A stretch of 64,000 nt of DNA. It comes from Mollicutes bacterium LVI A0039. GTDB lineage: Bacteria; Bacillota_I; Bacilli_A; UBA3375. The DNA is taken from assembly GCA_033103385.1 (NCBI GenBank), contig CP136953.1, positions 911,839 to 975,838 of the forward strand, given 5' to 3'. Below the pieces are notes generated by a model, which had not been told where the DNA came from, ran no database searches, and saw only the letters and a list, made by a program, of their open reading frames with translations. Positions 20,186 through 21,637 of this stretch are shown here, piece after piece. The stretch's first letter is position 1. The number at the start of each line of letters is the position of its first letter. A program made the translations under genes and the position numbers.

Positions 20186-20225
20186 TAAAAAAAGGTTATC
20201 TCATTAGAGATAACCTTTTTATTTA
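20186..20225. terminator. Bidirectional intrinsic terminator between the permease (+) and the Abi gene (-)
   Basis: Perfect 11-bp stem AAGGTTATCTC-ATTA-GAGATAACCTT flanked by an A-run and a T-run. Confidence 0.8.
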
Positions 20226-21481
20226 ATATTTCGCGTTATTAGTTCAATATAAAATTGATAATTTTCTATCATTCTTGTTAATATGATTCTTTTATAGATA
20301 ATTTCTTTGTTATTCTTAAGAGGTGTTATCAGCGTTTGACCATGGGCGATTGTATTACGAAATTGTGAAATAAGTGCGAAAAATTTCGTAACAATTTTTT
20401 TATAAATCTCGTCACTCATATTTTCATTTTCTTCTATCAAATCATTGCAAAGAATACTTTTATTGATATTAATAATTCCTATGGGCTTCTTCTCATCTAC
20501 TAGAAACACCTTGCGAATTACTTGAGCGACAATTTCATATTTATTTCTTTCGAACAGTTCACTTTTTATTCTCTTTAACACTCCACTATGCTGTATTTCG
20601 ACTTTCAATTCTCGCTTTTTTTTGCTAAGGTCTATATTTGTATGCCACTCTATTAATTCTGTTTTATTGCAATCAAATGCACTTTTTATCACGCTATTTG
20701 ATAGACACCTTAGTAATGATTCACTACTCAATATAACTTTTGGGGGATAATCATTTTCCAATAATGCTTTTAAAATCAAATTATCAAATTGTGATTCAAA
20801 CATTTTTTTAATTTCATTTGAATTTATATTTGTAGTTAATATATTTGATCCACACAAAACTTCTTTCAACGCGGAATTTGCCACAACATCCAGCAATTGA
20901 TCACTAGGATTTAAAATCGATTCACATATTTCTTTATACTTAAAAACATCATTTTCTACCAATAACTTTATTATATTACCAATCTCATTTAAACTACATG
21001 CGTTAATTATCCTATATATTTCTGACTGATATAAACAATAACGACGACAATCATTAGCATGTCCACTTGCACATTCACAACACTCATAATCAGTTTCACC
21101 ATTTTGATATGCATGTTTAAATGCATTTTTTGTTATTTTCATTACTTCAACGATGATTTGTGAATACAATTCGTTATGATCATCATATAATGTAAATAAA
21201 TTAAGAAATACATAATTTTTAATTTCATTTTCAAGCAGTAAAATTGACCCTAGCAATTCCACTGAATCCTTGAATATCCAATTGTAATCTTTTATCATTT
21301 CAGAACTCTTGACACTTCTATATTCATTACCATTAATTTTATAAATAAATTTCACTTGCTTGATTGTCTTTTGGTAAGGATATTTCTGTAAAAATTCCCT
21401 TAATTCTGACTCGTCATCCACTTCTACGTTCCTCAACTTTAAATACCCTAACTGTTCCTCAACTGTAGCTCTATTTTCCAT
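20219..21481 (-). CDS. Abi_2-family (AbiD/AbiD1/AbiF-like) abortive-infection protein
   Basis: N-terminal 'TVEEQLGYLKLRNVEVDDESELREFLQKYPY' matches the conserved Abi_2 N-terminal motif (eeqi.lLk.rgl..d.e.a...L....Yy). C-terminal 'FRNTIAHGQTL' matches the conserved RN.iAH motif. Solitary gene, AT-rich, flanked by terminators. Confidence 0.7.
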   Translation of the reverse strand: MENRATVEEQLGYLKLRNVEVDDESELREFLQKYPYQKTIKQVKFIYKINGNEYRSVKSSEMIKDYNWIFKDSVELLGSILLLENEIKNYVFLNLFTLYDDHNELYSQIIVEVMKITKNAFKHAYQNGETDYECCECASGHANDCRRYCLYQSEIYRIINACSLNEIGNIIKLLVENDVFKYKEICESILNPSDQLLDVVANSALKEVLCGSNILTTNINSNEIKKMFESQFDNLILKALLENDYPPKVILSSESLLRCLSNSVIKSAFDCNKTELIEWHTNIDLSKKKRELKVEIQHSGVLKRIKSELFERNKYEIVAQVIRKVFLVDEKKPIGIININKSILCNDLIEENENMSDEIYKKIVTKFFALISQFRNTIAHGQTLITPLKNNKEIIYKRIILTRMIENYQFYIELITRNIK

Positions 21482-21496
21482 ATCTTCCTTTAAATA

Positions 21497-21530
21497 AAAA
21501 AAAATACCCGATCGGGTATTTTTCTTTAAG
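21497..21530. terminator. Palindromic hairpin (ATACCC-GATC-GGGTAT) flanked by A- and T-runs. It terminates the upstream GH3 gene and sits in the Abi 5' leader
   Basis: Read directly: 'aaaaaaaaatacccgatcgggtatttttc'. It lies about 16 nt upstream of the Abi RBS/ATG. Confidence 0.65.
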
Positions 21531-21554
21531 ATCCGACTTTTAAGTCATGTACAT

Positions 21555-21590
21555 CTATATTATATCAAAATGGCATCATTTTGTCAAAAA
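21555..21590 (-). promoter_or_regulatory. Perfect-consensus sigma-A promoter (TTGACA-N17-TATAAT) reading toward the Abi gene
   Basis: Minus-strand reading: 'TTGACAaaatgatgccattttgaTATAAT'. Coordinates +/-3. Confidence 0.55.
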
Positions 21591-21637
21591 CAATAATTGA
21601 TGTAAGTTGACAAAATTAAAGTTTTTCTTATATTTGG

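Follow-up and report, generated by a model that had tools for sequence, protein, structure and literature searches.

A divergent AbiF-like HEPN protein and its conserved leader RNA in Mollicutes bacterium LVI A0039

Within a 64,000-nucleotide (nt) stretch of the genome of Mollicutes bacterium LVI A0039 (the window, to which all positions refer unless another locus is named), we analysed RZE82_04225, an open reading frame (ORF) of 420 amino acids (aa) on the minus strand (20219–21481, ATG start, TAA stop). The public record CP136989.1 of this organism annotates it as a 'hypothetical protein'. Its product is well supported as a divergent AbiD/F-fold HEPN protein, approximately 130 aa longer than AbiF and predicted to be an RNase toxin, and the gene is preceded by a candidate leader non-coding RNA (ncRNA) of about 59 nt (21496–21554, minus strand; 75.7 bits with a covariance model). 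By analogy with AbiF systems, we consider it reasonably probable that gene and leader constitute a self-contained, strongly diverged two-part cassette of the AbiF type, which would operate as a type III-like toxin–antitoxin or abortive infection system. This reading rests on observed features, namely the arrangement of the ORF, promoter and terminators, the remote homology and fold similarity to AbiF, and the conservation of the catalytic motif. It also draws on the conservation and covariation of the leader, the defence islands in which relatives reside, and the atypical base composition of the gene.

Protein family and remote homology to AbiF

A word-indexed search of 5.8 billion proteins retrieved RZE82_04225 alone, and the use of the alignment as query added one relative. 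Exhaustive phmmer searching of 1.84 billion cluster representatives detected nine relatives (E 1e-29 to 3e-4, 24–37% identity). The resulting family comprises 10 clusters at 50% identity, with a known range of Bacilliplasma-like Mollicutes and related metagenome contigs, and phmmer gives no link between it and Abi_2. No family match was obtained by tblastn against phages and plasmids, and scans of viral contigs and JGI metagenomes returned no family members.

The preliminary description of this locus had assigned the protein to the Abi_2 family (AbiD/AbiD1/AbiF) on the basis of two 'hallmark' motifs. This assignment was not borne out. PF07751 (Abi_2) showed no match to RZE82_04225 at E<=10, the sole Pfam line being HEPN_Apea (E 8.3), and the best PF07751 score among the 10 family members was 8.2 bits (E 3.8), against a gathering score of 25.6 bits. 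A search without a significant match is the outcome that the description itself had named as refuting its claim, and because of this result RZE82_04225 lies outside Abi_2 as Pfam defines it. The NCBIfam scan of the protein gave no match, while the PADLOC and PHROGs scans gave marginal matches at most, none of them significant. The weak matches to HEPN_Apea, PD-Lambda-2_A (E 0.009) and PDC-S02 (E 0.018) were not taken as memberships.

A remote relationship was detected by profile–profile comparison with an Abi_2 reference alignment of 34 PF07751-carrying proteins, seeded with AbiF of the Clostridioides difficile phage phiC2. With hhalign, the full-length family aligned to these proteins at 83% probability (E 8.6e-6). 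The N-terminal region alone (aa 1–100; 21182–21481, minus strand) aligned residue for residue with the Abi_2 N-terminus at 93% probability (E 3.3e-7, score 48.5), whereas the best of 40 column shuffles scored 18.5 and the reversed profile 13.4. Within this region, which is homologous to the Abi_2/AbiF N-terminus, the family alignment contains a block of about 95 aa with invariant Q10, L14, P35, Y54, Y66, E84 and K88, and Y36 and N89 are kept in at least 90% of the members. The spacing Y66...E84-x3-K88-N89 parallels Y69...E87-x3-R91-T92 in Abi_2. For the C-terminal piece, the RNTIAH helix found its best match in the RNxCAH helix of Abi_2 (score 23.1, best shuffle 18.7); profile–profile homology to the AbiD/F group is limited to the N-terminal region, with the HEPN helix marginal.

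Individual relatives gave further matches, with P0004 matching the PADLOC AbiD model colinearly (E 9e-4) and P0008 matching RTasHEPN at its R-x4-H helix. In the structural model, the predicted fold superimposes on AbiF, which would place the protein in the AbiD/F structural group. Foldseek searches of PDB and BFVD gave no significant match, and a profile search of PDB sequences returned nothing meaningful.

The C-terminal conserved block of the family alignment reads F-R-[ND]-x-[IV]-A-H-G and includes the HEPN catalytic motif, FRNTIAHGQTL in RZE82_04225 (R375-N376-x3-H380-G381; 20330–20362, minus strand). R375, H380 and G381 are present in all full-length family members, and position 376 is either N or D. 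The HEPN consensus is R-phi-x3-H (PMC12373285). With the motif conserved and the model all-helical, the family displays the features of the HEPN superfamily, namely R-x4-6-H (phi being N, D or H) within an all-helical domain.

The three peptides cited in the preliminary description were all located in the ORF, at aa 8–19 (EEQLGYLKLRNV), aa 374–384 (FRNTIAHGQTL) and aa 131–149 (DYECCECASGHANDCRRYC). The last of these is a Cys-rich insert with five Cys and one His (21035–21091, minus strand). It had been described as atypical of AbiD/F. It is missing in all nine relatives and falls in a variable loop with low confidence in the structural model. The insert is private to RZE82_04225 and not a feature of the family; it may bind metal.

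Promoter, terminators and leader RNA

The gene is preceded by a sigma-70-type promoter, TTGACA-N17-(TG)n-TATAAT (21559–21587, minus strand), which carries a TG extension and matches the consensus at 12 of 12 positions, in agreement with the preliminary description. This perfect match is unique within the window, where 0.14 would be expected; taken alone it is just mildly unusual, because 14 of 100 shuffles contain at least one. A TG(C/G)CA element was observed exactly 6 nt 5' of the -10 box in 6 of the 9 family promoters (TGCCA here, 21571–21575, minus strand; also in loci L005, L008, L014, L003 and L013). Promoter spacers are normally not conserved, and the element might represent an operator or an extended promoter element.

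Two side observations concern the same region. A second near-consensus promoter (TTGACA-N16-TATATT, 11/12; 21607–21634, plus strand) lies back-to-back with the leader promoter and faces the upstream GH3 gene, entering its 3' end in antisense. In addition, 12 nt from the promoter spacer and -10 region (CCATTTTGATAT, 21562–21573) are repeated perfectly, in inverted orientation, within the ORF at 21099–21110, probably by chance in AT-rich DNA.

Downstream of the promoter, the leader terminator (21495–21528, minus strand) has the core ATACCC-GAUC-GGGUAU (ATACCCGATCGGGTAT, 21504–21519), with A/U pairs extending the stem to 15 bp before a run of nine U, and the leader RNA is predicted to have its 3' end here. 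For the leader as a whole (87 nt), the folding energy is -19.1 kcal/mol (z = -2.6). The ribosome-binding site (RBS) AGGAAG, read from the sequence (21484–21489, minus strand), is located a few nt 3' of the U-run and 2 nt 5' of the ATG. At the far end of the gene, a bidirectional terminator with a perfect 14-bp stem, a 4-nt loop and flanking A- and T-runs (20189–20220, z -6.8) serves the minus-strand Abi-like ORF as well as the convergent plus-strand gene for the amino-acid permease. Both terminators previously described around the gene were thereby located.

The elements of the leader are shared across the family. All nine complete family loci carry one module, consisting of a -35/-10 promoter, the hairpin P1, GAUC, an intrinsic terminator (U7–9), an RBS and the start codon, and the tenth locus, which is incomplete upstream, exhibits the same module as far as its sequence reaches. 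In the window, the predicted transcription start coincides with the 5' element AUGUACAU (21547–21554, minus strand), corresponding to the (A/G/U)UGUAYA box found in 7 of the 9 complete leaders. It is followed by P1 (GACU-UAAA-AGUC; 21535–21546, minus strand) and, directly 3' of this hairpin, by a GAUC that is invariant in all 10 family leaders (21530–21533, minus strand). The gap between P1 and GAUC is 0–4 nt across the family. GAUC starts 24–25 nt past the -10 box in all but two of the nine leaders, and these two have a longer P1; the background frequency of GATC in the family loci is 0.0022 per nt. The preliminary description had proposed that a terminator-like hairpin gates expression of the gene; this was right but incomplete, as the hairpin is the 3' end of a leader RNA module conserved throughout the family.

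The genes 5' of the module are unrelated between loci and include a GH3 glycosidase in the window, ABC/FtsX genes, a 71-aa ORF and others. Because the upstream genes differ in this way, the terminator belongs to the cassette and not to the neighbour. The upstream GH3 operon has no terminator other than the leader terminator. The idea that the leader hairpin is merely the GH3 terminator was ruled out as a full account, since the promoter–P1–GAUC–terminator module also precedes relatives with unrelated upstream genes.

P1 retains its position while its sequence covaries in the family, with the variants GACU/AGUC, AACC/GGUU, GGAC/GUCU and GGG/CCC. As MAFFT gave no structural register of the leaders, pairing was counted on hand-registered 12-mers. 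In the six sequences used, 91.7% of cells are paired, compared with 56% in shuffles (a value reached by 0 of 500), and all four pairs vary on both sides; shifting the partners by one column lowers the pairing to 67% and 56%. The fold of the segment 5' of GAUC modestly exceeds dinucleotide shuffles (mean z -1.6). A covariance model built from three leaders independently recovered a fourth, that of P0004 (36.2 bits, E 1.7e-5), and its sole real match in the window was 21496–21554 on the minus strand.

The leaders are better conserved than the genes downstream of them. Between P0002 and P0003, the leaders share 76% identity (best of 100 shuffles 63%), compared with 36% for the proteins, 52% for the coding sequence (CDS) and 40% for third codon positions. 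The corresponding values are 81% (best of 100 shuffles 65%) versus 41%, 58% and 50% for P0006 and P0010, and 69% (best of 100 shuffles 63%) versus 39%, 56% and 44% for the window locus (P0001) and P0004. With a leader more conserved than its gene, a terminator before the RBS and no separate promoter for the gene, the arrangement is that of AbiF-type systems. Other Rfam families than that of the abiF RNA, which is considered below, gave no leader match, the weak ones being generic terminator matches. Tandem repeats of the ToxIN kind were sought in 21482–21637 by TRF and a repeat scan, and none were found. From its sequence, the leader appears to be an RNA of a previously undescribed kind.

A second GAU(C/A) occurs in the terminator loop of several leaders, as GAUC in P0001 (window 21510–21513) and P0004 and as GAUAA in P0005 and P0007, while P0006 and P0010 have an internal GGAUAAG. 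Each leader might thus hold two RNA elements of similar kind, an arrangement that would fit a protein dimer. In the case of P0009, the public gene call begins 32 codons early (L014 165–260) and reads across the leader RNA, including its GUGUAUA box, P1, GAUC and terminator; translation probably begins at the Met of L014:261 instead.

Genomic setting and defence context

Mollicutes bacterium LVI A0039, a cultured shrimp-intestine bacterium of the 'Candidatus Bacilliplasma' lineage, has a genomic G+C content (GC) of 34.2% (PMC11527720). As previously described, RZE82_04225 is solitary, being flanked by sugar-utilisation and transport genes: its neighbours encode two GH3 glycosidases, an AraC/GH39 protein, an amino-acid permease and a surface protein of 4578 aa, and the flanks contain no defence gene for 10 kb on either side. 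The GC of the ORF is 0.27–0.29, below that of the flanking genes (0.37–0.41) and of the whole genome (0.34). The one related genome compared is the sister genome LVI A0078, in which the orthologous permease (68% identity) lacks an Abi-like neighbour, with no synteny in the region. The window locus shows neither flanking direct repeats nor insertion scars. The low GC, the contexts of the relatives and the lack of synteny in LVI A0078 point to a horizontally acquired, mobile and patchily distributed cassette.

Among the relatives, defence genes are encountered in several loci. At the locus of the closest relative, P0002, the gene for an LlaJI-type restriction endonuclease lies 7 nt 3' of the family gene, and genes for an SMC_N/AAA_15 ATPase and a protein of 205 aa come next (L005 1875–5448); P0002 may be co-transcribed with them. 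P0006, from LVI A0078 (CP136956.1, L010 1–17266), resides in a dense defence island. Around it are a DNA methylase, a MutH-like nuclease, an ATPase of the AAA_15/21 type with a partner of 377 aa, AIPR, a YobI-type ATPase of 1257 aa, DUF6119 and an unknown protein of 448 aa. P0005 is located near an Endonuclea_NS_2 protein, and P0008 adjoins ordinary genes. A conserved protein partner that could serve as an antitoxin was not found beside the gene in the family loci examined. The earlier proposal of a candidate defence gene is backed, indirectly, by the island contexts of the relatives together with the low GC.

Two neighbouring genes in the window show repeats of their own. The giant 4578-aa ORF (4137–17873, minus strand) contains more than 25 near-identical repeats of about 140 aa (Bact_surface_Ig-like) and a C-terminal membrane anchor, and is a probable adhesin of this gut symbiont. 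At the 3' end of the GH3 gene (21638–24451), a degenerate 21-nt tandem repeat of 2.9 copies (21642–21701) codes for the C-terminal tail of the GH3 protein (937 aa), which is acidic and rich in NQEIE.

Proposed mechanism and alternative explanations

In the proposed cassette, the first component would be the 420-aa HEPN RNase, with its AbiD/F fold, its intact R-N-x3-H motif and about 130 residues more than AbiF. The second would be the leader RNA of about 59 nt, transcribed from a strong, constitutively active promoter up to an intrinsic terminator directly 5' of the RBS. Most transcripts would stop at this terminator and yield abundant leader RNA, and rare read-through would supply a small amount of toxin mRNA. 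The leader RNA, through its UGUAYA box, P1, GAUC and terminator hairpin, would bind the HEPN dimer and block the RNase site. Phage infection could then shift the balance between RNA and protein, or displace the RNA, and the freed RNase would cut cellular and/or phage RNA, leading to growth arrest and an aborted infection. We thus infer for the cassette an RNase activity, toxicity, RNA–protein binding and an anti-phage phenotype; the leader RNA probably restrains the toxin.

A number of observations weigh against this mechanism. On the protein side, RZE82_04225 misses all curated Abi models (Pfam, PADLOC and NCBIfam), the C-terminal HEPN alignment barely exceeds its controls, and the structural model was built on an alignment of 10 sequences only. 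On the RNA side, the leader is short, consisting of one hairpin of 3–5 bp and a terminator, and the P1 covariation test comprised only six hand-registered sequences with two close pairs among them. The two leader subgroups are alike at the motif level only. Distant leaders score 10–13 bits with the covariance model (R1), which is the level of noise, and because the model cannot separate them from noise, RNA homology across the family rests on motif and architecture and not on score. Furthermore, the abiF RNA family RF03085 found no match in the leader (E<=10) or in seven family loci (E<=1), although the phiC2 control scored 37.6 bits; for this reason, an antitoxin role of the RNA rests on architectural analogy and conservation and not on RNA homology.

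One alternative is a leader that acts only in cis. Here the protein would still be an AbiD/F-fold HEPN defence RNase, but the leader would be a transcription attenuator that neither binds nor neutralises it. Its terminator would hold a dangerous gene at very low expression, and might respond to a protein or to physiological signals. The enzyme would be auto-inhibited until a phage product activates it, a scheme already put forward for lactococcal AbiD1. A terminator placed between the sole promoter and the RBS, a very short leader without the abiF motif, and a TGCCA in the promoter spacer that could be an operator would all suit such an arrangement, and so would the precedent of AbiD1, which is activated by a phage protein and whose gene is transcribed very weakly (PMC13064643). 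A plain terminator, however, needs no conserved UGUAYA box, covarying P1 or invariant GAUC; the equivalent leader is a protein-binding antitoxin in both experimentally studied AbiF systems, and no other antitoxin candidate is conserved beside the gene. We regard pure attenuation as unlikely, though more probable than the other alternatives. Leader-peptide attenuation coupled to translation, with the 5' box as the start of a leaderless mini-ORF (AUG-UAC-AUG-ACU-UAA here), appears the least credible of the explanations considered. In 7 of 9 leaders, transcription is indeed predicted to start at the codon pair (A/G/U)UG-UAY, and the peptides of P0002 and P0003 would be similar (MYKTYGFDQLKALV and MYRTFGFDQLKALV...); the possible products are MYMT* in the window (21554–21540, minus strand) and MYKTYGFDQLKALV* in P0002. 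Leaderless translation strongly prefers AUG. P0006 and P0010 would have to start at UUG, and P0004 and P0005 lack a start. The peptides would range from 4 to more than 24 codons with nothing conserved past M-Y, and the hairpin covaries as RNA.

Two further alternatives concern the protein itself. An ordinary Pfam Abi_2 member with the usual abiF-type regulation would be consistent with the N-terminal and R-x4-H motifs, which resemble those of Abi_2, and with the remote profile and fold similarity. It is made very improbable by the lack of a PF07751 match, with relatives scoring far below the gathering score, by the empty NCBIfam scan, by a length some 130 aa beyond that of AbiF, by the absence of RF03085 where the control works, and by the separation of the 10 clusters from Abi_2 in phmmer. 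Scarcely more probable is a role outside defence, in which the protein would bind RNA as a HEPN-like housekeeping or regulatory factor, or would be a remnant in decay, and the similarity of the leaders would reflect only the shared ancestry of a mobile cassette. The neighbours of the gene, which serve sugar utilisation and transport and include no defence genes, agree with this view, as do the ordinary genes around P0008. Against it stand the intact ORF with conserved catalytic residues, the extremely patchy and non-syntenic distribution, the low GC, and the dense defence islands of two relatives. It is further weakened by the saturation of third codon positions in genes whose leaders remain conserved, which argues for selection and not for recent shared ancestry.

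The AbiF-type cassette, in which the leader RNA would neutralise the HEPN protein, is thus the reading that we favour. A more specific version is conceivable but held only tentatively: the family could represent an unrecognised branch of the AbiF/Cas13-ancestor group, combining an enlarged HEPN RNase (a helical expansion of about 130 aa, with a possible zinc-binding knuckle in the present protein) with a new class of short antitoxin RNA, whose conserved single-stranded elements, the 5' UGUAYA and the GAUC past P1 (with GAUC or GAUAA again in the terminator loop), would be read by the dimer. If this is true, AbiF-like toxins have taken up structurally unrelated RNAs more than once, and the family would offer an independent view of how HEPN toxins come under RNA control.

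Comparison with known systems

Recent work has established that AbiF-type systems are HEPN toxins neutralised by RNA and the likely ancestors of Cas13; the design principle has been known since 2025. The present locus suggests the same design in a lineage that is not detected by Pfam, NCBIfam, PADLOC or Rfam models. Current censuses of defence systems miss the family because no curated protein or RNA model detects it. Since the host can be cultured, with growth on PPLO medium, the predicted transcripts can be checked directly. With respect to annotation, 'AbiD/F-like HEPN domain protein' could replace the label 'hypothetical protein' for RZE82_04225 and its nine relatives, the protein being Abi-like in fold and probably in function, though outside Abi_2.

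In the AbiD/F group, upstream regions are more conserved (68–80%) than the genes (46–65%) and are required for function (PMC13064643). In AbiFCd of C. difficile, a SigA promoter drives an ncRNA of about 100–130 nt, RCd22, which ends at a Rho-independent terminator just 5' of the abiF RBS; abiF, which lacks a dedicated promoter, is expressed by read-through, and RCd22 neutralises the toxin in cis and in trans through direct binding (PMC12373285). The structure of PbAbiF with the AbiFr ncRNA (8vz6) depicts a HEPN homodimer with one ncRNA per monomer, in which RNA bases block the active site. The window locus has the same layout as these systems, but a different RNA and a much-diverged protein. 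AbiF, AbiD and AbiD1 (PF07751) have about 290 aa, whereas RZE82_04225 has 420 aa, with a helical expansion of about 130 aa and the Cys-rich insert found only in this protein. Its leader carries UGUAYA, P1 and GAUC and no RF03085 match, with a single motif copy where RCd22 has two.

The type III toxin–antitoxin systems (ToxIN, AbiQ/antiQ and AbiV) likewise place an RNA gene before the toxin gene, with an intervening terminator that sets the RNA:toxin ratio, and they combine an RNase toxin with abortive infection, as predicted for the window locus. Unlike ToxIN-type systems, the window leader has no tandem repeats, and the toxin fold is HEPN and not ToxN/AbiQ-like. Compared with the HEPN domains of Cas13 and its miniature ancestral forms, RZE82_04225 has a single HEPN motif and no CRISPR array, repeats or spacer-like segment, and shows no sign of being guided by RNA. 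A second, unrelated leader RNA motif associated with one protein fold would be useful for asking which RNA features the inhibition of a HEPN dimer needs.

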